From the NCBI GenBank assembly GCA_016182085.1, contig JACOYB010000004.1, forward strand, positions 4,250 to 68,249: a stretch of 64,000 nt of DNA, in the 5' to 3' direction. Positions within the stretch are counted from its first letter, which is position 1. Each line of letters begins with the position of its first letter. Source of the DNA: Candidatus Magasanikiibacteriota bacterium. GTDB taxonomy: Bacteria > Patescibacteriota > Patescibacteriia > Magasanikbacterales > GWA2-37-8. The notes below the pieces were generated by a model. That model ran no database searches and was not told the DNA's origin. It saw only the letters and a list, made by a program, of their open reading frames with translations. The translations under genes were made by a program, and so were the position numbers. Positions 6,391 through 63,770 of this stretch are shown here, in pieces.

Positions 6391-6440
6391 ATGGTAAAGA
6401 TAAAAAGATTGTAAATAATTTATAGAGTATTTATTATTTT

Positions 6441-8507: not shown

Positions 8508-8543
8508 ATAATTTATAAAGGCCATTTTAGTAAATTAAAAAAT

Positions 8544-8571
8544 AATCACGATTAAGCCGTGATTGTTTTTT
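8544..8571 (+). terminator. Rho-independent terminator after the second ATPase
   Basis: aatcacg-attaagc-cgtgatt hairpin followed by TTTTTT. Confidence 0.55.
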
Positions 8572-8624
8572 AATCCACCTGCAGTCGCTCTACCACCGGT
8601 TGTGAAGGGGTTGAACATTGGCGG

Positions 8625-8653
8625 TTGACAAAAACCGGATTTTATACTATTAT
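8625..8653 (+). promoter_or_regulatory. Sigma70-like promoter TTGACA-17-TATTAT driving the GC-rich ORF at 8817
   Basis: Consensus -35 at 8625-8630, 17-nt spacer, -10 at 8648-8653. Confidence 0.5.
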
Positions 8654-8700
8654 ACTTTGTTCTTTAATAATTTTTTCCAACTTTCTTTTGGCTAATCATT

Positions 8701-8728
8701 GTCATTCCCGCCATAGCGGGAATCCAGT
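8701..8728. repeat. Half-copy of interspersed palindromic repeat (TGTCATTCCCGC-catA-GCGGGAATCCAG)
   Basis: Same 28-nt hairpin unit as at 18108-18135, 27723-27750 and 31963-31990. Confidence 0.8.
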
Positions 8729-8816
8729 GGGCCGGAAGAAGGCTGGAAAAAATCAGCGCTTCCTCTTTGCCACGTCGGCGAGGAGTGAGCTTTCTCAAAA
8801 GAGGAGGCAAAGGACA

Positions 8817-9305
8817 ATGGTAATGGCAATCGACTTCTTGCTTTCGGCCGCCCACCTCAAGCGTGAACTTGGCGAGGAGCTGTTCGAGGCTTTGGTCAGC
8901 TCGAACAACACTGCGGCAGTTCGCAAATTCGCGGAGGAGCTCGTCAAGTTGGGACCCCCCACTGAGATGACCCTCGGCGATCGCGCCTACGACATTCTCG
9001 GCATCCTCAAGGGAGACGAGAAGTCGGTCATCGGCCATACGATGGTCAGCCGCGCCAAGGAGCAGAACGCCCACAACGGGAAGGAAGAGCGAGAGCACGT
9101 CCTAAAGTATCAGGACCAGATTCCCGCCGCCCTCCGCGGCAAGGTCGTCCTCGTCTTCACCGACGACAGGCACCCCGACGACCCCGAGGGCGTCTACTGC
9201 GTTGGCTGGGACGGCAAGCGCTGGGTCAAGGACTGGCGCTGGCTCGACTTTGACGACTGGCGCGGCCGCTATCGGGTTCTCCGTCGCAAGTCCCCGCAGC
9301 CCTAG
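8817..9305 (+). CDS. Hypothetical protein, GC-rich (about 62% GC, strong GC3 bias), probably horizontally acquired
   Basis: Strong SD GAGGAGG 9 nt before ATG 8817; codon usage (CTC/GTC/GGC/CGC) unlike neighbouring genes; no recognisable domain (C-terminal W/D/R-rich). Confidence 0.6.
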   Translation: MVMAIDFLLSAAHLKRELGEELFEALVSSNNTAAVRKFAEELVKLGPPTEMTLGDRAYDILGILKGDEKSVIGHTMVSRAKEQNAHNGKEEREHVLKYQDQIPAALRGKVVLVFTDDRHPDDPEGVYCVGWDGKRWVKDWRWLDFDDWRGRYRVLRRKSPQP

Positions 9306-9388
9306 AATTCTTAGTCGCTCAGAACTTTCGGGTTCTGTGCTCACTTGATCCCTTCGGCTCGCCTGCCGTCAGGCAGGCTCGCAAAAAT

Positions 9389-9426
9389 GCCCACCCTGGG
9401 AAACTAGGGTGGGCAAATTATTTTTT
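9389..9426 (+). terminator. Rho-independent terminator
   Basis: gcccaccctgg-gaaact-agggtgggc hairpin then aaattatttttt; preceded by a second hairpin gcctgcc-gtca-ggcaggc. Confidence 0.6.
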
Positions 9427-9525
9427 AGGGTATCCTATGGCAAATCAACAGGTCGGCTTATTGATTTAATCGCCCGTTTCGTATATATTAGCTAAAGTTC
9501 ATATATATAAATTAAGCTAAACTCT

Positions 9526-10326
9526 GTGTTTTTAGATATTATTAAAGCAATTGTCTTGGGTTTGGTAGAGGGCATTACCGAGTTTTTGCCTATCTCTTCT
9601 ACCGGCCATCTTATTATATTAAACAATTGGTTGAGTTTTAGCCCGGATCTAACGGTAATGTTTGATATAGTGATTCAGTTCGGAGCTATTTTGGCGGTAG
9701 TGGTTGTGTTTTGGAAACGATTATGGCCGTTTGGCAAAGACCAGATTGAGAGGCTTGGGATTTTTAATCTTTGGCGCAAAACCATAGTGGGAGTATTACC
9801 GGCCATTGTTTTGGGCGCGGCGCTAGGCAGTATAATTGAAGAAAAACTATTTAATCCGTTGGTAGTGGCCGCGGCTTTGGTGGCGGGCGGTATTATTTTA
9901 ATTTTAGTGGAAAGAAGACAGGTTACCGCTAATATATTATCTGCCAAAGATATTTCTTATCGCACCGCTTTTTTAATCGGTCTATTTCAATCTTTGGCCA
10001 TGATTCCGGGCACTTCGCGGGCCGCGGCCACAATTATTGGCGCCATGCTTTTGGGGGCAACGCGAGTAGTGGCGGTAGAATTTTCTTTTTTCCTAGCTAT
10101 TCCTACCATGCTAGCCGCTTCGGCATACAGTTTACTCAAATATGATTTAGTAATTAGTGTAAATGATTTTATAATTTTAGGTATTGGTTTTGTCACAGCA
10201 TTTTTTACCGCCTTGGCAGTAATTAAATTTTTATTAAATTATATCCAAAATAATAATTTTAAGGTTTTTGGATATTATCGCATTGGGTTGGGTATTTTGG
10301 TGTTACTATTGTTTATAATATTATAA
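9526..10326 (+). CDS. uppP: Undecaprenyl-diphosphatase (BacA/UppP)
   Basis: Full-length match to UppP (GITEFLPISSTGHLII, conserved C-terminal PGTSRAAATIIG). GTG start assumed. Confidence 0.85.
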   Translation: MFLDIIKAIVLGLVEGITEFLPISSTGHLIILNNWLSFSPDLTVMFDIVIQFGAILAVVVVFWKRLWPFGKDQIERLGIFNLWRKTIVGVLPAIVLGAALGSIIEEKLFNPLVVAAALVAGGIILILVERRQVTANILSAKDISYRTAFLIGLFQSLAMIPGTSRAAATIIGAMLLGATRVVAVEFSFFLAIPTMLAASAYSLLKYDLVISVNDFIILGIGFVTAFFTALAVIKFLLNYIQNNNFKVFGYYRIGLGILVLLLFIIL

Positions 10327-41688: not shown

Positions 41689-44600
41689 ATGCGCGGAGGG
41701 AAATTTCGTCTTTGTCGTGGCTCGGTCACGATTTTTTTGGTTTTTACTGTTGGTATCCTCGTGGCGGGAGTGCTGGCGGTAGTTTTGGTGTTGCGACCAA
41801 AAACATCGGTGCCGGACAAGGGTTTGCCAGGGATATCTAAAACAATGGGCGGATTTGTGAAGACGCCAATTGGCGCAGCTACGCCGTCAGTTAAATTGGA
41901 AAGCCGTGTGCTTGAATTGACACCGGCGACAACTAAAACATTTTTAACGGAATTGGCGCAATCTGATAAATCAACGCAGCATGTCTATGTCCGCTTGGCG
42001 CGGTATCCGCAACTGGTTGATCGGGATACGTTGGAAAAAGCCGGAGTGACGCTTCTGGATTTTCTCGGCCAGCGCGTGTATATGGCCGTTGTTTCTGGTA
42101 AATTCACGGTTGATGATTTGGGCAAACAGCCGCTGGTTGAGGCCTTGGCAAAGATTGAGGATGCCGATAAAGCTCATCAAGATATTTGGAAAGAGAGATT
42201 TTTTGTTTTTGTCGTTAAACCGGGAGAAGATGAAAATGAGCCGGAGATTAATTATGTGCAAAATTCCGACGGTACGTTGAATTTAACGGTAGAATTTTTT
42301 GCCGATGTGGCCGCATCAGTCGCGAGAAATATTTTACAGGACGCTGGCGGCGCTAGAAGCGCCATGGGGCGTGGGCTGTGGGAAGTGAAATCAGCGCCCG
42401 CCTCGGCTGTTCGTCGGTTGGCTGCTTACGATGCAGTGAAACGTGTTGATCCGGGTCCGGCGCCATTTATGGCGGACAACAATCGCAGCCGCGCCGCGCT
42501 TAATGTTGATACCGTGCAGAATTTCACCACGGCCACCAATGTTTTTGGCGGTTTGAGCGGTTTGGGCGTGCAAGCGATTATTTTTGAAAGCATGATGGAT
42601 GAAACGCATGATGATTTTAGTTTGCTTGATGCCGCTAATAATATTATCGGCAGTCGGGTTGCCCGCCATCAGCCATCGGCGCATGCTACTCATGGCAGTC
42701 ATGCTACGCATGTGGCGGGTATTGTCGGCGGCAACGGGTTTATGAGTACAAGCACTATTATTGTTCAATGTCCGGGGACACCGGCGGTCAGCGGCACCCC
42801 TTGGCTGTTCCGCGGCATGGCACCACAGGCCACGCTTCTTGATTATGCCAGTTGGGAACGGACGCCAGACGGCATTCTTGATGCGGTTGCTAATTTTGGC
42901 ACCGAGTTGTCCAATAATTCATACTCAATTACATATGACGGGGATTATAGCGCCGCTATGCAAATCAACGACCGGCTGATCCGCGGTTCGGCCGTTTCAT
43001 CAGGGGGCGTAGCAGTGCCAGGCCGATCGATGATGTTTTCGGCAGGTAATCATGGATCCTATACATATAACGGCGGCGAGCAGGTTGGCTATTTTGCTCT
43101 GACTAAACAAAATAAAAATGACACCATGGTGGGGAATTGGAATGCCTGTGGCGCTACGCTGGCCGGTGGCAACATTGGTACCAGTATGGGTCCTGCTTAT
43201 GACGGGCGTATCAAGCCGGATGTGGTTGCTTCGGGCAGCTATGTTATATCCACGCAAAGCAACAATAATGGTTACACCAACAAATCAGGAACCTCAATGG
43301 CTACTCCGGCAGTGACTGGCGTCAGCGCGCTAGTTCTACAACAATACGCCACGACTTATGGTGTCAATCTTGATGTGAATCCGCCGCGTCCTTCAACTAT
43401 TAAAGCAGTATTAGTTAATACCGCAACTGATATTGACTGGGCAACGGCCGCGCCCGCCGGCTATGTTTATCCGCCCGCCGGCGGTATAACTGGCTGCGCT
43501 CCCGGGCTTCTCAATAATCCGGCATTTTGCGTGGGTGACGGCCCGGTGGTTTTCTTTCCCGGTCCTGACTTTGCGACTGGTTGGGGCATGGTTAACGCCC
43601 AAGCCGCGGTGAATGCGGTGGCGGCGCAAACTTTATTTGAAGATCAGATCGATGTGACTGGACAATTCCGTGGCATACAGTTTAGCGTTGCTTCGGGTAC
43701 AACCAATATGCGCATGACGCTGGCCTGGGATGATGTGGAAGGCAGTCCCGCAATTCTCGATACGAGCCCGCACTTGGTTAATGATCTTGATCTTGAGCTG
43801 ACTGACCCGGCCGGAGTCGTGTTTTACCCTTGGCAGTTGAATCAAGCCATTGCTGATGTTGCGGGTGTGCCATTGCCTAATGAACAGCAATATCCTGGTA
43901 CCGGTATCGTAATTACCACTGCGTTGGCACCGACAGCCGCGCCTATTGACTGCGATGGCAGCGCTGCTGATCCGAATCCATGCATACCCCAGAACGACTA
44001 TCCGGGCACCATTCCGGTAGCGCCCGCCGGCCAGGGGCGTGATCACCTCAACAATGTCGAGCAAGTATTTGTCTCGGCGCCGGTTGCCGGCACGTGGAAC
44101 TTGCGCGTTACCGGCTTCCAGATCCCTGATCCGGCTAATCCCCAGCCATACTCCATCGCCGGTTTGTCGGCCGCCGGCAATGCCTGGCCTGACCTGACGC
44201 CGATTGGCGATGTAACTATTGATGAAGGCGCGACCATGATTATTCCAATTACCGCCGTTGATCCCGAAGGCACGCCAATCACGCTTACCGCCAGCGGTCT
44301 GCCACCGTTTGCCGCCTTTGCCGATTTGGGTGGTGGCGCCGGCACGCTTACTCTGACACCAAGTTGCACTGACACTGGCGTCTATCGCGGTCTGGCTATC
44401 ATTGCTACTGATGGCGGCGCGCCGATAAAATATGAAGGCCAATATATAACCATTACCGTTAATCCGGCCAACTGCGCTCCGGCTATTGATCCGGTTGCCG
44501 ATGTGACTATTACCGAAGGCGATACACTTGATGTGCCGGTGAGCGCTACCGATCCGGAAGGCGATGCGTTGGTTTTGGCCGCTCCTGATTTGCCGCCGTT

Positions 44601-46827
44601 TGCCGCCTTTGCGCCAACAGGTCCGGGTACCGGGGCAATAAATTTGGCGCCAAGTTGCAGTGATGCCGGTGTTTATGCAGACCGGACGATTACTGCCACC
44701 GATAGTGGCGCTCCACCCCAGACAATGACTGAACTCTTTACGATTACCGTCGACGATGATTTGGTTCCGGTGGCTAATGCCGGAGCGGACATCGTTACGT
44801 ACAGCGCCATGGCTACCGTACTCAACGGCGCCGCCAGTAGCGATCCGGAGGCCAAGCCATTGACCTATAGTTGGGCACAGACCGCGGGTACACCGGTGGT
44901 TCTGGCCGGCCTCGATACAGCCACGCCGAGCTTTACGGCACCAACGGTCGCCGCCAGCGAAACGCTTACCTTCACCGTAACCGTTACCGATTCGTGCGCG
45001 CAACCTGCCGCCGACACTGTCGTTGTGACTGTCCGTCCGCTCGTTGATGCTTCTATTATCCTCGATCGTTCCGGCAGTATGATGTGGCCTGTGCCGGCCG
45101 AGGGCGGCGGCACCATTACCAAGATGAACTCATTAAAAAATTCGGTCAATCTTTTCCTCTCGCTCTTTGTTAATGAACGCCCGGGCGCGCCTGATAAGCT
45201 CGGTATTGTTAAGTTTGCCGACAACACGGCGGCGGATACGCAAACAATCCGTCCGCTGGCCGATGTCGAACCGGCGGACATAGCGCCTGCCGGCGCCGTG
45301 AGCGCGCTGATTTCCGGTCTGACCACCGATGCGACCACGTGGATTCGCGGCGGTCTTAATCTTGGATTGGCGGAACTGTTCGGTCCGGCCGGAGTAGCCA
45401 GTCACAAAAAAGCGATGGTACTCTTCTCCGACGGCAAAGAAAATGAATCGCCTTTGACGCAGGATCCGCCGCCGGCGCCGGATGGGGTTTTAAGCGATCC
45501 TGATTTTATCAGTACGTCAGTATATGCGGTCGGCTTTGGCGTCGCTGGCGCGGCCGGCGATACCGGTATTGATGAGGCGCTCTTAACCACCATTCAAAAC
45601 GTCGGTGCCGCCGATGGTTTCGTCAATGTTACCGCCGAGCCGTTGGCGCTTACCAAGTTCTTTGTTGAGGCGTTGGCCACCATGTTCGATCAAACCATAT
45701 CGCTTGATCCGGTGACCACGTTATCCGGAGCCGGGTCATCGTTCCAGTCGGCTACCATCAGTAGCGCCGATCGCCAGGCCACGTTCGTGCTTACTTGGAA
45801 TCAGCCGCAGACCGATGCGCTCGACCTTAAACTGCGTACGCCCGAAGGTGAACTGATTACTACCGCCGACGCCGCGCCGGGAACACCGATTGAATATGTG
45901 AGTGGCGCGACGTTCAAGTACTTTATCGTGCGTTTTCCGCTTACCGGTCGTTTGCGCGGCATTCACGCCGGCACTTGGCAGATGGAAGTCAGTCGCAATC
46001 AGGCGCCCGCCAATCAGCTGGCGACCTTTGCCACGGCGGTCATGGTAGATAGTCCTAGTTTGCGCTGGATGCCTTCAATACCATCATCTATGCTGTTTAC
46101 CGGGGATGAATTCGGCATCCGGACATCGCTGCTTGAAAACGGCAAGCCGATTGCCAATGCCAAAGTGTTTGCCGACATTGAACGCCCAATAGTCAACCCG
46201 CATCAGGTTGTGGTCACGGCCAAGCTCGATCCGCGCCAAGCGTATATTCCATCTGTTCTCAAAACCGATCCGCCGTCGCCGTATGACCAGAAATTGCTTC
46301 AGATTATTAAAAACGCCCGCGGTAAAAATCCATTTCCTGTGAGCAAGGAGCGGGTGCAACTCTTTGATGACGGTAAGCATAATGATGGCAAAGCGAACGA
46401 TGGCACGTATGGCGCCAATCTAACTAAAACCAATGTTGGCGGTGTCTACCGCATTCATCTGCGCGCCCAAGGTAAAAGTTCGCAGTACGGGGCATTTACC
46501 CGTGAGTCCAGCCGGAGTATTACCGCTATCATCAAAGCTAGTCCCAAGGCATCGAATGTTACCATTGCGCCGATTACCAAAGCTTCAGCCCGTGGGACCA
46601 TATACCAATTGACGGTGACACCGAAAGACAGCCAAGGAAACATAGTTGGCGCTGGCTATGCTAGTATGGTTAAAGTAAGTGGCGCCGATATCAAGCCGAT
46701 TGAAGCGGTAGAAGACAAGACCAATGGCAGTTACACACTGCGTTTTACGGCCGACCCGCGGGCCATTCTGACTGTCCGGTTTGGTGATGAGAAGCTTGCC
46801 AGTATGGTAGTTGAAAAATCTCAATAG
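41689..46827 (+). CDS. Giant (1712 aa) secreted subtilisin-like serine protease (S8) with cadherin-like/Ig-like repeats and a von Willebrand factor A domain
   Basis: Signal/TM; HGSHATHVAGIVGG (His) and GTSMATPAVTG (Ser) motifs; three ~90-aa repeats (DPEGTPITLTASGLPPFAAF..); VDASIILDRSGSM vWA MIDAS motif. Confidence 0.85.
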   Translation: MRGGKFRLCRGSVTIFLVFTVGILVAGVLAVVLVLRPKTSVPDKGLPGISKTMGGFVKTPIGAATPSVKLESRVLELTPATTKTFLTELAQSDKSTQHVYVRLARYPQLVDRDTLEKAGVTLLDFLGQRVYMAVVSGKFTVDDLGKQPLVEALAKIEDADKAHQDIWKERFFVFVVKPGEDENEPEINYVQNSDGTLNLTVEFFADVAASVARNILQDAGGARSAMGRGLWEVKSAPASAVRRLAAYDAVKRVDPGPAPFMADNNRSRAALNVDTVQNFTTATNVFGGLSGLGVQAIIFESMMDETHDDFSLLDAANNIIGSRVARHQPSAHATHGSHATHVAGIVGGNGFMSTSTIIVQCPGTPAVSGTPWLFRGMAPQATLLDYASWERTPDGILDAVANFGTELSNNSYSITYDGDYSAAMQINDRLIRGSAVSSGGVAVPGRSMMFSAGNHGSYTYNGGEQVGYFALTKQNKNDTMVGNWNACGATLAGGNIGTSMGPAYDGRIKPDVVASGSYVISTQSNNNGYTNKSGTSMATPAVTGVSALVLQQYATTYGVNLDVNPPRPSTIKAVLVNTATDIDWATAAPAGYVYPPAGGITGCAPGLLNNPAFCVGDGPVVFFPGPDFATGWGMVNAQAAVNAVAAQTLFEDQIDVTGQFRGIQFSVASGTTNMRMTLAWDDVEGSPAILDTSPHLVNDLDLELTDPAGVVFYPWQLNQAIADVAGVPLPNEQQYPGTGIVITTALAPTAAPIDCDGSAADPNPCIPQNDYPGTIPVAPAGQGRDHLNNVEQVFVSAPVAGTWNLRVTGFQIPDPANPQPYSIAGLSAAGNAWPDLTPIGDVTIDEGATMIIPITAVDPEGTPITLTASGLPPFAAFADLGGGAGTLTLTPSCTDTGVYRGLAIIATDGGAPIKYEGQYITITVNPANCAPAIDPVADVTITEGDTLDVPVSATDPEGDALVLAAPDLPPFAAFAPTGPGTGAINLAPSCSDAGVYADRTITATDSGAPPQTMTELFTITVDDDLVPVANAGADIVTYSAMATVLNGAASSDPEAKPLTYSWAQTAGTPVVLAGLDTATPSFTAPTVAASETLTFTVTVTDSCAQPAADTVVVTVRPLVDASIILDRSGSMMWPVPAEGGGTITKMNSLKNSVNLFLSLFVNERPGAPDKLGIVKFADNTAADTQTIRPLADVEPADIAPAGAVSALISGLTTDATTWIRGGLNLGLAELFGPAGVASHKKAMVLFSDGKENESPLTQDPPPAPDGVLSDPDFISTSVYAVGFGVAGAAGDTGIDEALLTTIQNVGAADGFVNVTAEPLALTKFFVEALATMFDQTISLDPVTTLSGAGSSFQSATISSADRQATFVLTWNQPQTDALDLKLRTPEGELITTADAAPGTPIEYVSGATFKYFIVRFPLTGRLRGIHAGTWQMEVSRNQAPANQLATFATAVMVDSPSLRWMPSIPSSMLFTGDEFGIRTSLLENGKPIANAKVFADIERPIVNPHQVVVTAKLDPRQAYIPSVLKTDPPSPYDQKLLQIIKNARGKNPFPVSKERVQLFDDGKHNDGKANDGTYGANLTKTNVGGVYRIHLRAQGKSSQYGAFTRESSRSITAIIKASPKASNVTIAPITKASARGTIYQLTVTPKDSQGNIVGAGYASMVKVSGADIKPIEAVEDKTNGSYTLRFTADPRAILTVRFGDEKLASMVVEKSQ

Positions 46828-49639: not shown

Positions 49640-51460
49640 ATGTCTGTTAAAACCAAGTTGCTAATCTATATTGTTGTCATAGCGTTGCTGGCAACAATAG
49701 GGGCGGCGCTTGGTTTTTGGTTTTATAATAATAGCAGTTTTGCATCTCTACCTTCCTTCGTTAAGGAGACTTCTCAAGAAGAATCCCAGATGCACAGGGC
49801 TTATTCCATGGACGAAGGATTCTATAGTGTTTTCTTTGCCAATAATAAACAAACAAAAAATATTGAAGAGAAAGTTGTGTCGGCAGTGGTGCCGCATCAT
49901 TTAATTGCCGGACAATTTATCGGTTCTTTTTTTAATAGTATGGCAGGGCAAAAGCCGGATACGGTCGTTATTATCGGTCCGAATCATAAACAGGTAGGAA
50001 ATAGTTCTGTTATTACCAGTAATTTGTCTTGGCAAACTCCGTATGGCACTTTAAACACAAATAAAAAGTTAATTAATAAAATTATTGCTACCAATATTGC
50101 TTCTTCACATCAAGAAGTTATGGGTGATGAGCATAGTATTTCCAGCCTCGTGCCATTTGTAAAAAAAACTTGGCCTAAAGCCATGGTGGTGCCAATTATT
50201 TTAAAAAATAATGCTAAAGGCTCGGATTTAGATAGATTAGTTGAGACGTTGTCAGATTCAAAAGAAAAAATTTTAGTCTTGGCCAGTGTTGACTTCTCAC
50301 ACTATTTGCCGCAATCAGTCGCGGATTTTCATGACGCGCTCTCTATAAATACCTTAGAAAGCGGCAGTTTCCAAAATTTGCGTGAACTGGAAATAGACAG
50401 TCAGCCAAGTTTGTATGCATTATTAAAATATAATGAATATAAAAAATCACAAGCCTTTACTTTGCTGTCTCATACAAATAGCGGCGAAATTATTGGTAAA
50501 GATATAAGCGATACCACCAGTCATATCATTGGATACTATAGGGGCGGCGCCCCCGGTAAAAAACCGGCTGCTTCGGTGCAGTTTTTTGGCGATATTATGC
50601 TTGATCGCGAAGTGGCTAAAGTGATGGGCAAGACCGGGCTAAATTATATATTCAAAAATTTGCGCGCCGAAGAAGATAGATTTTTTCAAGGAATGCATAT
50701 GCTTGTGGCAAATTTGGAAGGCCCGTTTGCGCCAGCGCGAGTGTCTACAACCAAATCAATCGCGTTTCGGTTTGATCCAAAACTGGCAGGAGAGTTAAAG
50801 TCGCATGGCTTTGATGCATTTAGTCTAGCCAATAATCATAGCATGGACATGGGTCGAAAGAATGTTGAGTTTACCAGAGGAGTATTAAATCAAAATGGGT
50901 TTGGTTATTTTGGCGATGAGTATAATCAAGGTTTAGAGTATTCGTATATTGCCGGAGAAGAAAAAAATTTGCCATTTAACATAGCTTTTATTGGTTTAAA
51001 TTTTACCGAAGGGCCCTTGGATATGGTTAAAGTTAAAGAAGCTATAGATGATGCTAGCATGCAAGCCAAGTTTGTAGTCATTAATATTCATTGGGGAGAA
51101 GAATACAAGCGTAATTCCAATAAAAGCCAGCAAGATTTGGCCCACCAATTGATTGATTGGGGCGCGGACGTAATCATTGGCCATCATCCTCATGTGGTTC
51201 AGGAAGTGGAAGTATATAAGGATAAGTACATTTTTTATTCCTTGGGAAATTTTATTTTTGATCAGTATTTTTCTAAAGATACTCAAGAGGGCATGAGCGT
51301 TGGTTTAATTTTACAAGATGATGGTGGGGTAAAAGTCCATATTATTCCTTTTTTCTCCAAAAGATCCCAGGTGCAGGTGATGACTGGAGCGCAGAAAGAG
51401 GAGTTTTTTAAATGGATGAAGGAAAATAGCAGAATGGGGAGTTCTTCTTTTAGGTTTTAA
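49640..51460 (+). CDS. Membrane-anchored fusion of a Memo-like (MEMO1/AmmeMemoRadiSam protein B family) domain and a CapA/PGA_cap metallophosphatase-fold domain
   Basis: N-terminal TM; ..VVPHHLIAG..VVIIGPNH..WQTPYG..EHSISSLVPFV..SVDFSHY resembles Memo fold; C-terminal ..FFGDIMLDR..SLANNHSMDMG..IHWGEEY..IIGHHPHVVQ..YSLGNFIFDQ is the CapA signature. Confidence 0.65.
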   Translation: MSVKTKLLIYIVVIALLATIGAALGFWFYNNSSFASLPSFVKETSQEESQMHRAYSMDEGFYSVFFANNKQTKNIEEKVVSAVVPHHLIAGQFIGSFFNSMAGQKPDTVVIIGPNHKQVGNSSVITSNLSWQTPYGTLNTNKKLINKIIATNIASSHQEVMGDEHSISSLVPFVKKTWPKAMVVPIILKNNAKGSDLDRLVETLSDSKEKILVLASVDFSHYLPQSVADFHDALSINTLESGSFQNLRELEIDSQPSLYALLKYNEYKKSQAFTLLSHTNSGEIIGKDISDTTSHIIGYYRGGAPGKKPAASVQFFGDIMLDREVAKVMGKTGLNYIFKNLRAEEDRFFQGMHMLVANLEGPFAPARVSTTKSIAFRFDPKLAGELKSHGFDAFSLANNHSMDMGRKNVEFTRGVLNQNGFGYFGDEYNQGLEYSYIAGEEKNLPFNIAFIGLNFTEGPLDMVKVKEAIDDASMQAKFVVINIHWGEEYKRNSNKSQQDLAHQLIDWGADVIIGHHPHVVQEVEVYKDKYIFYSLGNFIFDQYFSKDTQEGMSVGLILQDDGGVKVHIIPFFSKRSQVQVMTGAQKEEFFKWMKENSRMGSSSFRF

Positions 51461-54144: not shown

Positions 54145-57100
54145 ATGAAAAAACGCCTGGGTTTTTCCCTCCTCATCGCCGCATTTAGCTTGGCGATCTA
54201 TGTATCTTTTTTGGCTCCAAGCAAAGTTGCGGCTGATTCAAATCTGGTTGAAGACCCGGGCTTTGAAACGAGCATGTCTAACTTTGAACCAAATCAAGAC
54301 GGTACATCCGTATCTCTTACGAGCATTAGTCCAATTAACGGATCCCGAAGTTTGGTAGTTGGCACTACTGGTTATGGTGATAGTGTATTATGGCAAGGCC
54401 GGGATATTTCTACCTTTGCTACCAAAAGATCAAATCAATTTACCGCTTCAGTGCGTATTCGTTCCACCGTTGGTTCGGCTTCAGAGATTTCTTTTTGCGG
54501 TTTGGTAGATTACGCAACTGGCGAAGGCGTTCGCAATTGTAAAGAAGTAACAGGTTCGGTTGGTGACAAAGGCACAGTCAATCTTTCCTTTGCTCTTGAT
54601 AACAGCCGAGATTTAGACAGAGTCCGTGTTGGTATTTTCCAAGAAGGAAGCGCCGCCTTACGTGAAGTTTTAATTGATGACTTGTCAGTGATATTAACCG
54701 GTATTTCCATCGGTTCGCCAGCTCCTACTCCGGTAAATGGTGCGTGTGGATCTTCAAATAACGCCACTGTTGCCAGCGCTCCAACCACCAACCTCTGTTC
54801 ATCCGGTTCTGCCAGCACGGTTGCGGGTTCCGGTCCATGGACTTGGAGCTGCGCCGGATCAAATGGCGGTACAACCGCCAGCTGCAGCGCTCAAATGATT
54901 TCTACTTCAAATCCAGTAAATGGTACTTGCGGCGCGGCTAATAACACCCAAGTTTCTTCAGCTCCAACTAACTATCTGTGTTCATCGGGTACAGCCAGTA
55001 CTGTTTCTGGTTCCGGCCCATGGACATGGAGTTGTTCGGGTACAAACGGTGGTACCAACTCTAGTTGTAGCGCTCAAACAATTACTACCCAAAATCCAGT
55101 AAACGGTGTTTGCGGCTCGGCTAATAATACAACAGTTTCAACAGCCCCAACGACTGGTCTTTGTTCCGTTGGCTCAGCCAGCACGGTGGCCGGTTCCGGC
55201 CCATGGACATGGAGCTGCGCCGGTCAAAACGGCGGCACAACCGGTAGTTGTAGCGCTCAAAAAACTATTTCTTCCACACCGCCGCCTGTTTCAAGCGCAA
55301 ATAATTTAATTGAAGAACCTAGTTTTGAAACCACTCTTTCTAATTTTGAACCAAATCAAGCCGGCACCTCTGTTAATGTTACAAATGTTAATCCCATTAG
55401 CGGCGCTAGAAGTTTATCTATAACTACCGGCGGCTACGGCGATAGTATTCTTTGGGCAGGCCGGGACATTTCTACTTTTACTACCAAAAGATCTTCTCAA
55501 TTTACCGGTTCTATCCGTATTCGTTCTACCGTTGCTTCTGCCTCCGAAATTTCATTCTGCGGTTTAGTTGATTACGCAACCGGATCCGGCGTACGTAATT
55601 GTACTAATGTTAGTGGTTCTGTTGGCGATAAAGGTACAGTTAATCTTTCCTTTGCTCTTGATAGCGCTCGTGATTTAGACAGGGTCCGTGTTGGTATTTT
55701 CCAAGAAGGCAGCTCTCCTCTTAGAGCAGTTATGCTTGATGATGCTTCCGTAGTTTTAGCAGGTATTTCTCCTCCGATTCCAGTAAGCGGAGCTTGCGGA
55801 TCATCTAATAACACCACTCTTTCATCTGCCCCAACTACCAATCTTTGTGCCAGTGGCAGCCCGAGCTCTGTATCCGGTTCGGGTCCTTGGAGTTGGACAT
55901 GTAATGGTTCAAATGGCGGCACTACTGCTAGCTGTACTGCCCAAAGAACTATTACCCAAACTCCGGTAAATGGCGTATGTGGTTCAGCCAATAACACAAC
56001 AGTTTCAACTGCTCCAACTACCAATCTGTGTTCTTCCGGTTCTGCCAGCACGGTTGCCGGTTCTGGCCCATGGACTTGGTCTTGCGCCGGTTCAAATGGC
56101 GGCACAACCGGTAATTGTAGCGCTCAGCTTTCCGGATCAACTACAATTCCACCTTCAACTAGATTTACAATCGGTCAACGCGTGCAAACAACAGCTAATT
56201 TAAATGTTAGAGCCACTCCAAATACCGCAGGTACTTTGCTTGGCACACAAACTTCCGGTTCGTTAGGCACAGTAACAGGCGGGCCAGTAGCCCAGGGAGG
56301 CTATAATTGGTGGGGTATAAACTACGATGCGGGAGCAGACGGATATTCGGTAGAAAATTTCTTAACCGCCTATTCATCTCCAAATCCTCCTCCAACTCCT
56401 CCACCGGGCGGCGCCATAACTTATCCGGCCTTTAATTTAAACGATCCGGCAGATGCCCCGCTTATTAAATTTGCAGAAACATGGGCAAGAAATTGGAATT
56501 TTGAAGGACATAATGTTGATCCTAACTTTAGCGGCAATAGCGGCAATTGGAATTATACCGAAACCACTTATGAGCCATGGCTTTTTGATCGTGCTTCCGT
56601 TGGTTACTATTTATATAAAAGAACTACCGACCCTACGCAAAAAGCTCGCTGGTATCAGCAATTTTTATCCGACTTTGCTTATTATAGAAATCATATAGAT
56701 TCAGCCGGTATATTTACTCCAAAAGGATATGGCGATACAAAATATAGTTATATCACTCCATTCTTACTTTACGAAAAAGAAACCGGAGACACTCAATATC
56801 GTCCAATTGCCCAAAGAATCTATAATGCATGGATGAGTGATTTTAGTAGCACATATTCACCAAATGGAAACGATCTTTGGACAGAACGTGAAATTGGTCT
56901 GGCTTTGGAAGCGGCCGTGTCTTGGTACGAAATTACTGGTGATTCTTCCGCGCTTACTCGCGCCAATGCTTTGATATCTCAATGGACTGTGGTGGCCAAC
57001 GCAGGCGGAGGCGTACCTCTTACTACCGTAGATCGCCATGAAGGTGGCGGAGGAACACAACTCATCACAAGTCCTTGGATGAGTGGATTATACTTCCAAG

Positions 57101-59904
57101 CTGCCCGCAGACTTTATGCTATAACTGGCAATACAGAAATATTGCAACAAGTAACTCGTTATGCAGATTGGATGGAACAGCACGCCTATTTTGATGCCGG
57201 TGTTGTAGACGATCCATATGCCGGAATAACGGCTGCTTACTATTTGGTTGGTCCTACAGGTCCTTACACTCCGGAAACTCCAAGCGCAGGCGACCTAGAC
57301 CACTGTTTAGATGTTTCAGGAATAGTATCGTTTGCCATTAGCGCCAAACAGCTTCTTGGTCAATCTGCTACTGCGCTTACCGCTCGCCATGCTCAACTAC
57401 GAACTTGCGCGGTATATGCATTTAATGATGCCACTCGCACCACCATTACTCTTCCTAAATATCGCGTAAATCCTCCTCGCAAATTTAATTGGTGGATGCG
57501 TTCTACCCTTGGATATAATGGTCCAACCAGTCCTGTCACTCCTCCACCAACTACTTTAGTAAATGGCGTTTGTGGTTCTGCAAACAACACTACCGTTGCT
57601 TCTGCTCCAACCACCAACCTTTGTTCCGCTGGAACAGCTAGTGCGGTCGCCGGTTCCGGCCCATGGACTTGGTCTTGCGCCGGATCAAATGGCGGCACCA
57701 CTGCCAACTGCAGCGCTCAAAGAACAGCTTCAACTCCGCCAACTAGTTATTCTTTATCCGTATCTCTTGGTGGTAGTGGTACCGTAGTTTCAACTCCGAC
57801 TGGTATTAACTGTGGCGCTGCCTGTACTGCCAACTTTACGAGCGGTACTTCGGTTACTCTTACCGCAACTCCAGCAACCGGAAATACATTTATTGGTTGG
57901 AGCGGTGGAGTTTGTAGCGGTACTGGAACCTGTGTCGTTTCAATGACTGCCGTTAGAAGCGTTGGCGCGACATTTGCAGCAAATACTACCCAAACTTCCG
58001 TAAGACCTTTGGCTACTGCCAATCCGCGCGTTTTGTTAAATGATGCTACGACCGTATCAAGATTACAAAATGCTTTGTCTACAAATGCGGCTGGCGCGGC
58101 CAGATTTAGAACCATGGTAAACAATGAACTTGCAAGTCCGGGCACAAACTATGCCTTCCAAGGATGGTTTGCCGCTTTAATGTATCGTCTCACCGGTACA
58201 GCGAGCTATGGAACCTTTGCCGTAAATAAAGTAGATACATTTGTTAATGCCGAAATGGCCAGAATAAACGCCGGCCAACGTCCGCTTGTCGCTGGTGATA
58301 GTTTCTTAGAAGTGGGAGATATGGTCGGCGATGTGGCCCTTGTATATGACTGGGCAAACAATTTACTTACTCCAGCTCAAAAGACAACCTGGGTTAACTA
58401 CATGAATTTAGTTTTAAATAATTTATGGGGTAATCCGGACGCAGTTCGTTGGGGCGGAGTTTCTTATCCTTGGTCCGGCTGGTCATTAAATGATCCTTAC
58501 AACAATTATTATTATTCATTCTTGCAAGCCACCATGTTGACTGGTTTAGCTACTTACGGAGATAACCCTCAAGCGCAACAGTGGTTAAATAAATTTTATA
58601 ACGATAAAATCATCGCTCAATTATTGCCAGCCTTCAATATTATGCCAGGCGGCGGATCTCGTGAAGGTACGGGTTATGGCACGGCTCTGGCCAGATTATT
58701 CAAGTTATACTTCTGGTGGGAAAAATCAACCGGTGTAAATATTGCCAACCAAACTCCGCACACTTTGGGCACAATGTTCTGGTTTACCCATTCCATCGTT
58801 CCATCACTTGATAAATTGGTTCCAACCGGCGATCATTCTCGCGATGAAACTGCCGAGTTGTATGATTACCATCGTGATTTACTTCAGAATTTAATTTCTC
58901 TCTATCCAAACGAACAAATTTCTGGAGCGGTAAAACAACTATTGTCCCAGTCCAATGTACAAAGAATGCAGTTTAGCGTAAGTTACTGGTCGGACTTTGT
59001 AAATGATTGGCCATCCATTACTGCCAGACCTTTAACTACTCTTAACACCACCTATTTTGGAACCGGTACTGGCAACTTCTATACCCGTTCTTCTTGGAAT
59101 AATAATGCCATAATGGTACACATGATGGCTGGCCCTTACGACCAAAGCCATGCTCATAGGGATCAAGGTTCAGTTCTGCTTAATTCTGCCGGCGCTTGGT
59201 TATTTGATGATGCAAACCGCCGCTCTTCTAGCGGTATAGAATTAGACGAAGAGATGCATAACTTGGTACGCTTCCGTTCCGGTGGAAGTACTGTCAGACA
59301 AGTAGAAAGCGCTGCCCCATCCGAAGTTTTGGCTTTATCTGATGGAACTTTGTTCTCTTATGAACTGGCCAATACTAAACCGATTTATAACAACAAACCG
59401 GAAGTAGTAAAATCAGAAAGAGAAATGGTCTTTATTAAACAGGGCGCGGTTGTGCTGTTTGATAGATCTGCTGCCAACTCATCTGCGGTTTCCAGAATTT
59501 TCCAGTTACAAATGTCAACCGCTCCGTTTATCTCTGGCAACCGATTAACCTTTACCAGTGGTGCGCAAAGAGCCGATGTGTGGAGACTCTCTCCTGCCAA
59601 TGTTCCATGGACAACCGTGCCTGTATTTAGCGGTCAACGAGCAGAAGCTGTAGACAACAACGGCACTCAATCTTTGTTCCTGCATGTTATAGGTGTAAAC
59701 AGCCAAGTAACATCGGTAATCTCTGATAATACGGCCACCGAAACCGGTGCTCGCATCACCTTTAGTGATGGAACCGTGGCTACCGTACGCTTTAGCAATG
59801 CTGGTCGCGGCGGTACATTAAACATGGTAAGTGCCTCTGGCCAAACCTTGTATAATGCCGCTCTACCTATAACTGTAAATACATTCCCGCAATATCAACA
59901 ATAA
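54145..59904 (+). CDS. Giant (1919 aa) secreted surface protein with a heparinase II/III-like lyase domain
   Basis: Signal peptide. Two ~180-aa carbohydrate-binding-like modules, seven ~55-aa four-Cys repeats (PVNGxCGSANNTTVSxAPTTNLCSSGSASTVAGSGPWTWSCAGSNGGTT), an SH3b-like segment and a B-repeat-like beta domain. C-terminal part has SHAHRDQGSVLL (HxHxDxxS) and surrounding features of heparinase II/III. Confidence 0.8.
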   Translation: MKKRLGFSLLIAAFSLAIYVSFLAPSKVAADSNLVEDPGFETSMSNFEPNQDGTSVSLTSISPINGSRSLVVGTTGYGDSVLWQGRDISTFATKRSNQFTASVRIRSTVGSASEISFCGLVDYATGEGVRNCKEVTGSVGDKGTVNLSFALDNSRDLDRVRVGIFQEGSAALREVLIDDLSVILTGISIGSPAPTPVNGACGSSNNATVASAPTTNLCSSGSASTVAGSGPWTWSCAGSNGGTTASCSAQMISTSNPVNGTCGAANNTQVSSAPTNYLCSSGTASTVSGSGPWTWSCSGTNGGTNSSCSAQTITTQNPVNGVCGSANNTTVSTAPTTGLCSVGSASTVAGSGPWTWSCAGQNGGTTGSCSAQKTISSTPPPVSSANNLIEEPSFETTLSNFEPNQAGTSVNVTNVNPISGARSLSITTGGYGDSILWAGRDISTFTTKRSSQFTGSIRIRSTVASASEISFCGLVDYATGSGVRNCTNVSGSVGDKGTVNLSFALDSARDLDRVRVGIFQEGSSPLRAVMLDDASVVLAGISPPIPVSGACGSSNNTTLSSAPTTNLCASGSPSSVSGSGPWSWTCNGSNGGTTASCTAQRTITQTPVNGVCGSANNTTVSTAPTTNLCSSGSASTVAGSGPWTWSCAGSNGGTTGNCSAQLSGSTTIPPSTRFTIGQRVQTTANLNVRATPNTAGTLLGTQTSGSLGTVTGGPVAQGGYNWWGINYDAGADGYSVENFLTAYSSPNPPPTPPPGGAITYPAFNLNDPADAPLIKFAETWARNWNFEGHNVDPNFSGNSGNWNYTETTYEPWLFDRASVGYYLYKRTTDPTQKARWYQQFLSDFAYYRNHIDSAGIFTPKGYGDTKYSYITPFLLYEKETGDTQYRPIAQRIYNAWMSDFSSTYSPNGNDLWTEREIGLALEAAVSWYEITGDSSALTRANALISQWTVVANAGGGVPLTTVDRHEGGGGTQLITSPWMSGLYFQAARRLYAITGNTEILQQVTRYADWMEQHAYFDAGVVDDPYAGITAAYYLVGPTGPYTPETPSAGDLDHCLDVSGIVSFAISAKQLLGQSATALTARHAQLRTCAVYAFNDATRTTITLPKYRVNPPRKFNWWMRSTLGYNGPTSPVTPPPTTLVNGVCGSANNTTVASAPTTNLCSAGTASAVAGSGPWTWSCAGSNGGTTANCSAQRTASTPPTSYSLSVSLGGSGTVVSTPTGINCGAACTANFTSGTSVTLTATPATGNTFIGWSGGVCSGTGTCVVSMTAVRSVGATFAANTTQTSVRPLATANPRVLLNDATTVSRLQNALSTNAAGAARFRTMVNNELASPGTNYAFQGWFAALMYRLTGTASYGTFAVNKVDTFVNAEMARINAGQRPLVAGDSFLEVGDMVGDVALVYDWANNLLTPAQKTTWVNYMNLVLNNLWGNPDAVRWGGVSYPWSGWSLNDPYNNYYYSFLQATMLTGLATYGDNPQAQQWLNKFYNDKIIAQLLPAFNIMPGGGSREGTGYGTALARLFKLYFWWEKSTGVNIANQTPHTLGTMFWFTHSIVPSLDKLVPTGDHSRDETAELYDYHRDLLQNLISLYPNEQISGAVKQLLSQSNVQRMQFSVSYWSDFVNDWPSITARPLTTLNTTYFGTGTGNFYTRSSWNNNAIMVHMMAGPYDQSHAHRDQGSVLLNSAGAWLFDDANRRSSSGIELDEEMHNLVRFRSGGSTVRQVESAAPSEVLALSDGTLFSYELANTKPIYNNKPEVVKSEREMVFIKQGAVVLFDRSAANSSAVSRIFQLQMSTAPFISGNRLTFTSGAQRADVWRLSPANVPWTTVPVFSGQRAEAVDNNGTQSLFLHVIGVNSQVTSVISDNTATETGARITFSDGTVATVRFSNAGRGGTLNMVSASGQTLYNAALPITVNTFPQYQQ

Positions 59905-59917
59905 AAATATAGCAGTT

Positions 59918-59958
59918 TAAAAACTAAAGGCCGCCCTCCAGGCGGTTTTTAGTTTTGG
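59918..59958 (+). terminator. Rho-independent terminator
   Basis: aaaactaaaGGCCGCC-ctcca-GGCGGtttttagtttt. Confidence 0.7.
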
Positions 59959-59968
59959 TTTAATAGGG

Positions 59969-59997
59969 TTGACAAAGAGGTTCTTGTATGATAATGT
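59969..59997 (+). promoter_or_regulatory. Sigma70-like promoter TTGACA-(15-17)-GATAAT/TAATGT
   Basis: Seen directly, upstream of small GC-rich peptide genes. Confidence 0.45.
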
Positions 59998-60078
59998 CTG
60001 TTATCTTGTATGACTTATAGCGCCTTATTATAGGCGCCTAAAGCCCGCTGCAAGATCAACAACCGGGAGAGTAACTGA

Positions 60079-60219
60079 ATGCTGTTTAGCGCTTCTGATC
60101 TGATTTCTCATCTCTGGCTGGAGGTCAAGGCACAGTCCAAGAAGTCCCTGATCTACGGGATCGTGACTGCGATCCTTCTAGGGCTCGGGGTAAAGTTTGT
60201 GATTTGGCTCTTCTTGTAG
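60079..60219 (+). CDS. Small hydrophobic peptide (46 aa, one TM helix), GC-rich foreign-looking
   Basis: SD GGGAGA; distinct codon usage; followed by 10-bp-stem hairpin terminator. Confidence 0.4.
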   Translation: MLFSASDLISHLWLEVKAQSKKSLIYGIVTAILLGLGVKFVIWLFL

Positions 60220-60249
60220 AAGGTGAGTCAATCGCAACGGTTGTCAGTG

Positions 60250-60287
60250 GCACGGCGGCTCAAGCAGGCCGCCGTGCACCCCATTTT
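60250..60287 (+). terminator. Hairpin terminator GCACGGCGGC-tcaagcag-GCCGCCGTGC + ACCCCATTTT
   Basis: Perfect 10-bp GC stem. Confidence 0.5.
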
Positions 60288-60492
60288 AATATAAATCAAA
60301 AAACTGCCGTAGTAGGCAGTTTTTTGATTATAAAAAATTATGCTTATTCGGCTCTTGAAAAAATGGTTAAATTATGGTAGTATTATCTTTCTTGCATAGT
60401 GCTCGGTGGCACCTTTAGAAAGGTGCGCCAAGCCGGTTGCAAGTGTTCGTAAACAACTAGCGCCCGTATTGTGCGGGTGGAGGAATGGTCGC

Positions 60493-60690
60493 ATGATCAC
60501 CTATGATAAGTGGTACAAGCCGTTTGGTTCCGCGCTCGTGTTTCTGGTCATCGCCGTTACGGCGCTGACCATTGCTCATGGGGATCCAAGTTTCCTGTAT
60601 TCCTTGGGTCAGTGGTGGCAGGAGACCCGCTGTCATCTGATCTCTGGCTTTCCTACGGCCATGTGCCCCTACGCACCGCTGTCGTTCTAA
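60493..60690 (+). CDS. Small membrane protein (65 aa, one TM helix, Cys/Trp-rich tail), GC-rich
   Basis: Strong SD GGAGGAA 8 nt upstream; ORF could extend to 60406. Confidence 0.4.
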   Translation: MITYDKWYKPFGSALVFLVIAVTALTIAHGDPSFLYSLGQWWQETRCHLISGFPTAMCPYAPLSF

Positions 60691-60807
60691 CAGGGGCGAT
60701 GCAGAAGGTTGTTCCACGGATTTATGGGCGAAGCTCTGCGCGAGTCAAGCCCCACGCCTTTTATACATCAATGGTATGGTGTCTAGAAGAAGTGAAATAT
60801 TTTCTAT

Positions 60808-62789: not shown

Positions 62790-63770
62790 TTAGTTTATCT
62801 CAGTTGGTTTTATAGGAGAGAATTGGGAAATGGTTTTAGCCATTTCTTTTTTGTTTAAAGGTATTTTATCGGAAGAAGCAATAGAAATAACATGGCTGCT
62901 ATTTGCAATACCCCATAGCAATGCAGTATCAATGTCTTCTTTATAGAAGCGCGCGGCTAGATATGCCGCGGAAAACGCATCACCAGCACCGGTTTTGGAT
63001 AGCACTTCTACAGGGAAGCTTTCACAGTGCCAAACTTTGTCTTTATTTCCGGCCCAAGCACCCTTGGCGCTATCGGTAAGGGCGACTTCTTTTGCCCCTA
63101 AGTTCAGCAGACCGTCTATACATGCGCGGATTTTTGCCGGATTAAATTTTGTGTTCAAAATTGCTTCCGCTTCTTCTACGTTTAGAATTAACATATCCGT
63201 ACGGGCAATAACTTGTTTTACCAGCGGAATGTTTTTTAATTGCAGAGAGCCCGGGTTATAAGCCAGATGTATTTGTTTGTGTTTATTTAAAAAATCAAGC
63301 ATTTTTTCTTGGAGTGTTTCATAGCCTTCACTAAGACTTGTATAGTAAACCCAATCTATCTGCGGCAGATCTTCATGAAAATCATATTCTCTTTTTTCAT
63401 GATAGGATAAAATAGTTCTTTCTTTTTTAAAATTCAAGACCACTGAATAGCGAGTGGGGGTTTGCTTGTCTACGGAAACAAGATTGGTATGTACTTTTTG
63501 TTTTTTAAGTTCTTCTTTTACCATTTTGCCGCTGGCATCATCGCCAATTGTCGTAAGAATTGCGGTTTTAAGGCCTAAATTTGCCGTCCCCACCGCCACA
63601 TTGGCAGCATTTCCTCCCAAAGCCTGGAAGCTGTGAGTAATGGGAATCTTAGTGGCGAAATTCAAGCAGAGCTGACAGTTTTCTTGATTAAGGTCGCATT
63701 CAAGCGTGGCATTATCTATAAAAACATGCGTATCAATAAGCGCGTCCCCGATGGTGATGAGATTAAACAT
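62790..63770 (-). CDS. PfkB-family carbohydrate/nucleoside kinase
   Basis: GGNAANVAVG and TGAGDAFSAAYLA motifs. Confidence 0.8.
   Translation of the reverse strand: MFNLITIGDALIDTHVFIDNATLECDLNQENCQLCLNFATKIPITHSFQALGGNAANVAVGTANLGLKTAILTTIGDDASGKMVKEELKKQKVHTNLVSVDKQTPTRYSVVLNFKKERTILSYHEKREYDFHEDLPQIDWVYYTSLSEGYETLQEKMLDFLNKHKQIHLAYNPGSLQLKNIPLVKQVIARTDMLILNVEEAEAILNTKFNPAKIRACIDGLLNLGAKEVALTDSAKGAWAGNKDKVWHCESFPVEVLSKTGAGDAFSAAYLAARFYKEDIDTALLWGIANSSHVISIASSDKIPLNKKEMAKTISQFSPIKPTEIN

Follow-up and report, generated by a model that had tools for sequence, protein, structure and literature searches.

A 1919-residue secreted protein of a Candidatus Magasanikiibacteriota bacterium combines a heparinase II/III-like lyase-type module with a six-hairpin barrel

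The giant gene and its modules

The stretch of DNA analysed here (the window) is 64,000 nucleotides long and comes from a Candidatus Magasanikiibacteriota bacterium of the Candidate Phyla Radiation (CPR) or Patescibacteria (assembly GCA_016182085.1, contig JACOYB010000004.1, positions 4,250 to 68,249 of the forward strand), and our subject is the giant gene that lies in it at 54145–59904 on the plus strand. An earlier note, made from the letters of the window without database searches, had described the product as a 1919-amino-acid (aa) surface protein with a heparinase II/III-like polysaccharide lyase domain and near-identical internal DNA repeats. The open reading frame (ORF) is intact as claimed, a single uninterrupted frame that encodes 1919 aa plus stop, and its product appears to be a modular secreted protein. 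Residues 1–30 (54145–54234) read as a signal peptide or signal anchor, with MKKR followed by a 20-aa hydrophobic core and VAA/DS; the signal-like segment at aa 4–28 is the only hydrophobic one in the protein, and an LPXTG motif and a C-terminal transmembrane segment were looked for in its 1919 residues and neither is present. Since the sole hydrophobic segment is N-terminal and both of these anchors are missing, the protein is predicted to be exported or N-terminally anchored, and a surface location as such does not follow from the sequence. The GC content at third codon positions (GC3) of every module of the gene is near that of housekeeping genes. Recent horizontal transfer of the gene was considered and rejected, because its GC3 is like that of its neighbours and synteny is conserved in five related loci.

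Two of the modules are enzyme-like, and all features given here are on the plus strand. The C-terminal lyase-type module (aa 1281–1919, 57985–59901) has an (alpha/alpha) toroid and an antiparallel beta-sandwich, and a middle (alpha/alpha)6 six-hairpin barrel (aa 753–1132, 56401–57540), absent from the earlier note, is the second enzyme-like module. Ahead of the barrel lie a 160-aa module, here called module A, in a first copy (aa 31–190, 54235–54714) that starts NLVEDPGFE and ends LIDDLSVIL; units 1–3 of a four-cysteine (4-Cys) repeat with 55-aa cores and a 183-bp period (aa 196–372, 54730–55260); a second copy of module A (aa 385–544, 55297–55776); 4-Cys units 4 and 5 (aa 546–661, 55780–56127); and a bacterial SH3-like domain (aa 673–745, 56161–56379). 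Between the barrel and the lyase-type module are 4-Cys unit 6 (aa 1138–1192, 57556–57720) and a Flg_new_2 domain, a divergent InlB B-repeat (aa 1214–1280, 57760–57990; PF18998, E 4.9e-7), which passes its gathering score with 30.1 bits versus 23.6. The SH3-like domain reaches 18.2 bits (E 0.003) against PF08239, below the cut-off of 27; it is conserved in orthologues and is likely a relative of that family though sub-threshold. When the whole protein and each module were scanned with Pfam and NCBIfam, no lyase or carbohydrate-binding module (CBM) model was found and Flg_new_2 alone passed; the same scans gave a partial GH127 match in the barrel (below).

The C-terminal module and the barrel

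A word-index search found at least 713 relatives of the C-terminal module, and 399 places in species-representative genomes were confirmed; nearly all of these proteins are unannotated, most are 600–700 aa long, and a sizeable minority carries extra Ig, fn3, RTX, PG-binding or Flg_new_2 modules. Searching the Protein Data Bank (PDB) with the single sequence gave only E 0.11 to heparinase II (HepII), and significance needed a family profile. Built from 48 sequences, this profile matched HepII (polysaccharide lyase (PL) family 21, 2fuq) with E 6.4e-19, PL35 GAGase II (8khv) with E 1e-11, heparinase III (PL12) with E 1.7e-8 and PL15 Atu3025 with E 2.5e-3; its alignment covers only the beta-sandwich half of the PL35 and PL15 enzymes and three short stretches of HepII. 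Weak matches to PF07940 (E<0.01) and to PF05426 (Alginate_lyase) are given by 16 and 14 of the 48 members, respectively.

The AlphaFold model of the module (pLDDT 91, pTM 0.87) has helices to about residue 340 and then strands, and in Foldseek it matches PL15, PL21, PL35, PL39, PL17, PL12, PL33 and PL40 structures with E 5e-24 to 1e-14, TM up to 0.75 and identity of 12–17%; the alginate lyase Atu3025 of PL15 ranks first among these (3a0o; E 5.5e-24, TM 0.74). The predicted structure is that of the toroid plus beta-sandwich fold of the polysaccharide lyase superfamily, and at superfamily level the C-terminal module is, as modelled, heparinase II/III-like. Because its identity to every solved lyase is 12–17%, the family (at least hundreds of genes) appears distinct from every defined PL family and is uncharacterised, and such identities together with the partial profile alignments argue against membership of any PL family with a solved structure. 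The heparinase II/III-like character proposed earlier is borne out by the HepII profile match and the Foldseek matches (E 1e-17 to 5e-24 for PL15, PL21, PL35, PL17 and PL12), whereas placement in a defined heparinase or alginate lyase family is not. HepII of Pedobacter heparinus (2FUQ) has the same two-domain toroid and beta-sandwich and is the best profile match, at 15–16% identity and with a toroid catalytic region that cannot be aligned by sequence; PL35 (GAGase II/VII, 8KHV/8KHW) and PL15 (Atu3025/exoHep) are alike in fold (E 3.6e-22 and 5.5e-24, respectively, TM 0.69–0.75) at 13–17% identity.

The C-terminal HxHxDxxS motif that had drawn attention to this region is present as H1669-A-H1671-R-D1673-Q-G-S1676 (59149–59172) and is invariant in 48 of 48 family members. 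The profile alignment to 2fuq places H1669 on HepII His406, H1671 on His408 and D1689 (59209–59211, conserved in 47 of 48) on Asp425, of which His408 and Asp425 are zinc ligands. H1705 (59257–59259, also 47 of 48) could by its position be a third metal ligand, and H1671, D1689 and H1705 are our candidate metal site, H1705 being the most conditional of the three. In HepII a conserved metal site lies beside the catalytic His loop (PMC8006597) and His406 is the catalytic residue (Table 4 of PMC12088678); H1669, invariant in 48/48, aligns at this catalytic position (HepII His406, PL35 His401). The earlier note had named alignment of the HxHxD region to a non-enzymatic fold as evidence against its reading; the HxH falls instead on His406/His408 of HepII, in a module modelled with a lyase fold.

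The other candidate catalytic residues lie in the toroid. When a toroid-only profile was searched against the PDB, the VYDWC helix alone aligned and mapping of the Tyr and Asn failed; since the toroid half cannot be aligned with solved lyases, these two assignments rest on invariance and spacing. The candidate carboxylate neutraliser is N1453-N1454-Y1455 (58501–58509), in which N1454 and Y1455 are invariant and N1453 is present in 47/48 family members (Asn-Tyr-Tyr-Tyr, aa 1454–1457, is invariant), and the candidate catalytic Tyr (Brønsted acid/base) is Y1511 (58675–58677). N1454, Y1511 and H1669 are invariant in 48/48 and are spaced by 57 (Asn to Tyr) and 158 residues (Tyr to His), and the triplets published for PL12, PL15, PL17, PL21, PL35 and PL39 (Table 4 of PMC12088678) give computed spacings of 53–57 and 130–166. 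We propose these three as the candidate triad, with the Asn and Tyr more tentative than the His. The Asn191-Asn192/Tyr246/His401-x-His403 arrangement of PL35, which has a bound metal (PMC12088678), is mirrored with similar spacing by N1453-N1454/Y1511/H1669-x-H1671 here, while HepII has His202 where, judging from position, the window module family would have Asn-Asn-Tyr. The loop GGGSREGTGYG (aa 1502–1512, 58648–58680), which ends with Y1511 and Gly1512, is invariant in the family, but no other internal stretch is modelled with less confidence (pLDDT about 50), and the loop may form a mobile lid over the active site.

At least 207 proteins, all unannotated, make up the family of the middle barrel. 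It matches Pfam GH127 (PF07944) with E 4.5e-7 over positions 53–161 of 376, and GH76 and GH88 more weakly; the GH127 match is partial, with 29.6 bits for the isolated module and 24.6 for the full-length protein against a cut-off of 24.9. In structural comparison the barrel scored 22–23.6 against AGE-family epimerases/isomerases, 20.5–21.7 against YteR/GH105, 19–20 against GH88 and ~18 against GH76, and its identity to AGE, GH105 YteR, GH88, GH76 and GH127 enzymes is 5–16%. The GH127 enzyme HypBA1 has a Cys nucleophile (Cys417) and a zinc site of Cys340, Cys418 and Glu338; this Cys/Zn centre is not conserved in the barrel family, as a 43-sequence alignment contains no invariant or near-invariant Cys column. 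About 36 positions of the family are invariant, mostly charged or aromatic and rich in Arg, Lys, His, Asp and Glu, and these charged positions would suit an anionic sugar. GH88 and GH105 unsaturated uronyl hydrolases are (alpha/alpha)6 barrels in which a catalytic Asp hydrates the C4=C5 bond.

Genomic context and proposed function

The annotated neighbourhoods of six non-CPR lyase-family members were examined, and four of them (loci L081, L082, L083 and L085) are exopolysaccharide (EPS) biosynthesis clusters, which together contain GT2/GT4 glycosyltransferases, polysaccharide deacetylases (Polysacc_deac_1), a Wzx flippase, a GNVR chain-length protein, the exosortase EpsH, acyltransferase-3 (Acyl_transf_3) and methyltransferases; a fifth, L001, is a 4.5-kb contig with a CapK-like neighbour alone. 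At least three EPS marker classes were found by tblastn, using markers from three of the clusters, in 18 of 74 non-CPR loci, a count that is too low, given the divergence of these markers. In 6 of the 74 loci the lyase-family ORF has a barrel-family ORF beside it, and another is present within the L083 cluster. Where the records name a carrier, it is an environmental bacterium, for example of the Burkholderiales, Myxococcota, Anaerolineales or Sphingomonadales. The lyase-type and barrel families are neighbours in free-living bacteria and fused in CPR, which argues for a shared polymer as their target, most likely an acidic EPS of bacterial origin and not heparin or alginate.

A block of Polysacc_deac_1, GT2, (methyltransferase), Acyl_transf_3 and lyase-like gene recurs in L083, L085 and L082, and this deacetylase-GT2-acyltransferase-lyase order may define a specific EPS type; CapK-like genes follow the lyase-like gene in L083 and L001. 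One EPS cluster of the lyase family contains an exosortase gene, and nothing was found in the literature that joins heparinase with exosortase or PEP-CTERM.

The closest relatives of the lyase-type module (73–78% identity) are in Candidatus Magasanikbacteria metagenome-assembled genomes (MAGs) and in three MAGs labelled “uncultured Gammaproteobacteria”. In five of six such loci the gene order is PGA_cap/Memo, YebC, RuvC, giant gene, SpoU, orf240 and PfkB kinase, with protein identity of 64–97% across the five syntenic loci, which makes a Magasanikbacteria (CPR) origin of the window most likely. Exact look-ups of the giant protein and of the window's RuvC gave no record of either. The window and L007 have the module order modA - Cys x3 - modA - Cys x2 - SH3 - barrel - Cys - Flg - lyase; in L004, L005 and L006 it is modA - Cys x2 - Flg - modA - Cys - SH3 - barrel - Flg - lyase, and in L003 modA - Cys - modA - SH3 - barrel - SH3 - lyase. 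The order is similar, with frame changes, in L002 (Candidatus Magasanikbacteria RIFOXYD1_FULL_40_23, 4273–9908). Among syntenic genomes the RuvC–SpoU slot holds a lyase-only, a barrel-only or a fused version: in L087 it encodes a 1099-aa protein (2938–6237) of order PG_binding_1 - Cys - modA - Cys - lyase that lacks the barrel, in L088 a 515-aa barrel - SH3 protein (5129–6676) that lacks the lyase, and the two modules are fused in seven CPR loci. Since each occurs there without the other, the two enzyme modules are separable, occupying one slot in different genomes and fused in the lineage of the window.

Two side observations concern these relatives. The flanking genes of the three “uncultured Gammaproteobacteria bacterium” loci (L005, L006 and L007; CAZHYG010000004.1, CAZLNR010000003.1 and CAZUFD010000015.1, respectively) have their order and 59–97% protein identity in common with the window and with Magasanikbacteria MAGs, and that label is probably wrong. 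The orthologue in L002 has two reading-frame changes within its Cys/Flg region, and is either a pseudogene or affected by an assembly error in the repeats.

What might such a protein do? We consider it somewhat better than an even bet (probability roughly 0.55) that it is a modular enzyme, secreted or tethered by its N-terminus, whose target is an acidic polysaccharide that contains uronic acid. In this mechanism the uronate carboxylate would be neutralised by Asn1454 together with Asn1453, beta-elimination (abstraction of the C5 proton and protonation of the leaving O4) would fall to Tyr1511 and His1669, and the metal site (His1671, Asp1689 and probably His1705) would hold the catalytic His loop. 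The substrate would likely be of bacterial origin, an acidic EPS or capsule, and not a glycosaminoglycan (GAG) from animals, since the family is often found inside EPS biosynthesis clusters of free-living bacteria, whereas HepII lies in GAG utilisation loci. The barrel would probably perform a second step on the same polymer or its products, for example GH88/GH105-style processing of unsaturated uronates; the module A copies, the SH3-like domain and the InlB-type B-repeat may bind the target, and the disulfide-type 4-Cys units could serve as rigid spacers.

Several observations weigh against this interpretation. The giant protein reaches no Pfam or NCBIfam lyase model (PF07940 gave no match at E up to 10, and NCBIfam HepB, NF045571, scored 10 bits versus a cut-off of 600), its toroid half aligns by sequence with no solved lyase, and a search of the PDB with the barrel profile found no sequence relative. 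The barrel has no clearly nearest family, with AGE, GH105, GH88, GH76 and GH127 about equal, because Foldseek gives TM about 0.5–0.57 for all of them as well as for a polysaccharide lyase (5noa). One of the six annotated contexts, L084 (Anaerolineales), is not an EPS cluster, and the sources searched hold no substrate or activity data for members of either family. Human dermatan-sulfate epimerase 1 (DS-epi1, 6hzn) equals the lyases as a match to the model (E 3.4e-20, TM 0.75), and an epimerase that works on the polymer would also be in place among EPS biosynthesis genes.

The last two points bear on the reading in which the C-terminal module would, like DS-epi1, epimerise uronate C5 within the polymer: reprotonation of C5 from the other face would modify an EPS without cutting it. 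DS-epi1 is among the best structural matches and has the His/Tyr/HxH residues and metal site of HepII, and its authors argue that minute active-site changes can turn a lyase into an epimerase (PMC8006597); a modifying enzyme would also fit the EPS biosynthesis clusters in which the free-living relatives often lie. Lyase and C5-epimerase are not separable by sequence or fold. We favour a lyase, and regard an epimerase as distinctly improbable, because all bacterial structures among the matches listed are lyases (the one epimerase is human) and because the CPR module is part of a secreted multi-module protein whose gene lies at a housekeeping locus outside any biosynthesis cluster. Its fusion to a glycosidase-like six-hairpin barrel also suits degradation better than modification. 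DS-epi1 itself is a eukaryotic Golgi enzyme with 12% identity to the lyase-type module, epimerises rather than cleaves and, unlike the window protein, is not fused to such a barrel. The same beta-elimination chemistry could alternatively be directed at the producer's own envelope polymer or capsule, in self-remodelling, release or chain-length control of the AlgL type, instead of an attack on a host or partner cell. The EPS clusters that encode the family in free-living bacteria are the producers' own, the window has a Wzy_C O-antigen-ligase-like gene in addition to its PGA_cap/Memo gene, and the relative with a PG_binding_1 domain suggests attachment to the producer's wall. However, tblastn found no glycosyltransferase, Wzx or GNVR EPS markers in the window or the CPR loci, and a slot that changes between lyase-only, barrel-only and fused forms among otherwise syntenic genomes would be expected of an interaction or accessory gene more than of a core biosynthetic function, so that we think this use unlikely.

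Two further readings have very little probability in our view. In one of them the protein would be mainly an adhesin and its enzyme-like folds non-catalytic carbohydrate-binding domains, as its many binding or spacer modules (4-Cys units, SH3-like domain, InlB B-repeat and two module A copies) and the lack of any hit to a curated enzyme model might suggest; the candidate catalytic and metal residues are, however, invariant or nearly so in 48 diverse members and intact here, and the barrel family keeps its invariant positions. The other, which the earlier note proposed, is a true lyase of heparin/heparan sulfate or alginate, acting on animal or algal polymers. HepII as best profile match, PL15 Atu3025 as best structural match and the members with weak Alginate_lyase matches would agree with this, but identity is only 12–17%, the HepB equivalog is not reached, and the carriers are environmental bacteria that often have the gene in their own EPS clusters, which makes a glycosaminoglycan substrate in particular unlikely.

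A lyase in a CPR genome is by itself not surprising, since PL genes are commonly reported there (80 of 135 CPR MAGs in one study; PMC10031880), and the earlier remark that such an enzyme is unusual for an organism of minimal metabolism is weak. New here are a large lyase-type family that has no curated model or characterised member and often occurs in EPS clusters, the fusion of its module to a six-hairpin barrel, and the variable RuvC–SpoU slot. Little is known of how CPR/Patescibacteria gain access to their hosts and exploit them, and a chemistry can be assigned to few of their giant surface proteins; the protein described here offers a testable one (beta-elimination on an acidic polysaccharide) with named candidate residues, and the EPSs from homologous clusters of culturable Rhizobacter, Ideonella and Sphingomonas strains are candidate substrates. 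Characterisation of a single member would give an annotation to hundreds of genes and might establish a new PL family. A more speculative thought, to which we give only limited credence, is that a CPR episymbiont has taken over an enzyme pair that free-living bacteria (Burkholderiales, Myxococcota and others) direct at their own EPS, and with it breaks through, or feeds on, the slime or capsule of such hosts. If so, the different occupants of the slot and the turnover of binding and spacer modules would be adaptations to diverse host polymers, and the C-terminal family would found a new PL family specific for bacterial EPS; if the protein is ordinary, it is one more CPR polysaccharide lyase.

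Internal repeats and neighbouring genes

A repeat finder and a repeat hidden Markov model (HMM) identified six 4-Cys units (54730–54894, 54913–55077, 55096–55260, 55780–55944, 55963–56127 and 57556–57720), and adjacent copies have a period of 183 bp. The four Cys are invariant and each copy matches the repeat HMM with E 1e-29 to 1e-32, so the four-Cys units of the earlier note are real, although it had counted seven ~165-bp repeats; it may have included the Cys-containing Flg_new_2 domain (57760–57990) as the seventh. Its two ~470-bp modules were also found (module A, 54235–54714 and 55297–55776, ~480 bp each), but its term “near-identical” fits neither kind of repeat. Pairwise, the 4-Cys units are 67–81% identical in DNA and 65–93% in protein, the longest exact word they have in common is 26 bp, and synonymous differences occur at 16–25 of 55 codons between copies; the module A copies, 1062 bp apart, are 72% identical in DNA overall (72–79% in the repeat-finder segments) and 74% in protein.

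L007, the closest orthologue, also has six Cys units in the identical module order and is collinear with the window gene at 77% nucleotide identity. When the Cys units of the two genes were compared, the orthologous copy was the single best match in four of six rows (units 1 and 3 are the exceptions). Because L007 is collinear and orthologous copies are mostly best matches, the repeats appear to be old, diverged duplicates that have not been homogenised, in an array older than the split of the window and L007 lineages. Concerted evolution or recent recombination of the repeats is rejected by this comparison, and the recombinational length variation between strains that had been predicted is unlikely given equal repeat number without homogenisation in L007. 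More distant orthologues do vary in module number, with one to six Cys units.

The 4-Cys unit has no Pfam model. Its 55-aa consensus is PVNGxCGsANNttvssAPTtnLCssGsastVsGSGPWtWsCaGsNGGTtasCsAQ, and a search of 1.84 billion proteins with its profile gave 4191 representative proteins, 2412 of them at E<=1e-10; a single protein can have as many as 26 copies. Named carriers include Paceibacterota proteins, a 1936-aa protein of Minisyncoccus archaeiphilus (labelled C1 family peptidase in UniRef) and an S8 subtilase giant. The unit seems to be a general-purpose spacer in large extracellular proteins, of which many belong to Patescibacteria, and is a candidate for a new curated repeat family. The M. 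archaeiphilus protein and S8 subtilase giants of Patescibacteria likewise have the multi-copy 4-Cys spacer, Flg_new_2 and PKD-type modules; their catalytic modules are peptidases, whereas the window protein has the lyase-type module and the six-hairpin barrel. Module A, in contrast, is nearly clade-specific, with nine proteins matched in 5.8 billion. It had been called CBM-like, and found no Pfam match at E up to 10 and, with a profile of 14 copies, no PDB relative; its NLxxDPGFE start and DDxxV end presumably resemble those of jelly-roll CBMs, and to call it a CBM would be a guess.

Upstream of YebC–RuvC, a gene at 49640–51460 (+) encodes a 606-aa fusion of Memo-like and PGA_cap (CapA) domains, which is kept at full length in L004 and L006 and as its PGA_cap half only in L002 and L005. 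Downstream of the giant gene, a PfkB-family sugar kinase (62790–63770, minus strand) is conserved in the orthologous loci. It reached no NCBIfam equivalog (its best match, the IolC N-domain, gave 110 bits versus 300, and KDG-kinase models were weaker), so a link to uronate catabolism through a KDG kinase, which was considered for this gene, is not supported. A second giant secreted protein, of 1712 aa, is encoded at 41689–46827 (+) and has an S8 subtilase domain, K319L-like PKD and a weak VWA match, with no 4-Cys units. The GC content of its gene is 0.54 and GC3 is 0.53, versus about 0.39–0.43 for housekeeping GC3; it is compositionally atypical and may have been acquired.

Just 3' of the lyase-barrel gene, a GC-rich, terminator-like hairpin followed by a T-run is visible in the plus strand at 59924–59945, 20 bp past the stop codon; the hairpin scan listed it on the minus strand only. 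The 900-bp gap between the gene and its downstream neighbour (59905–60807) holds two small ORFs for hydrophobic peptides, one at 60079–60219 (46 aa) and the other the ATG-started part of 60406–60690, and a GC-rich hairpin follows each of them.

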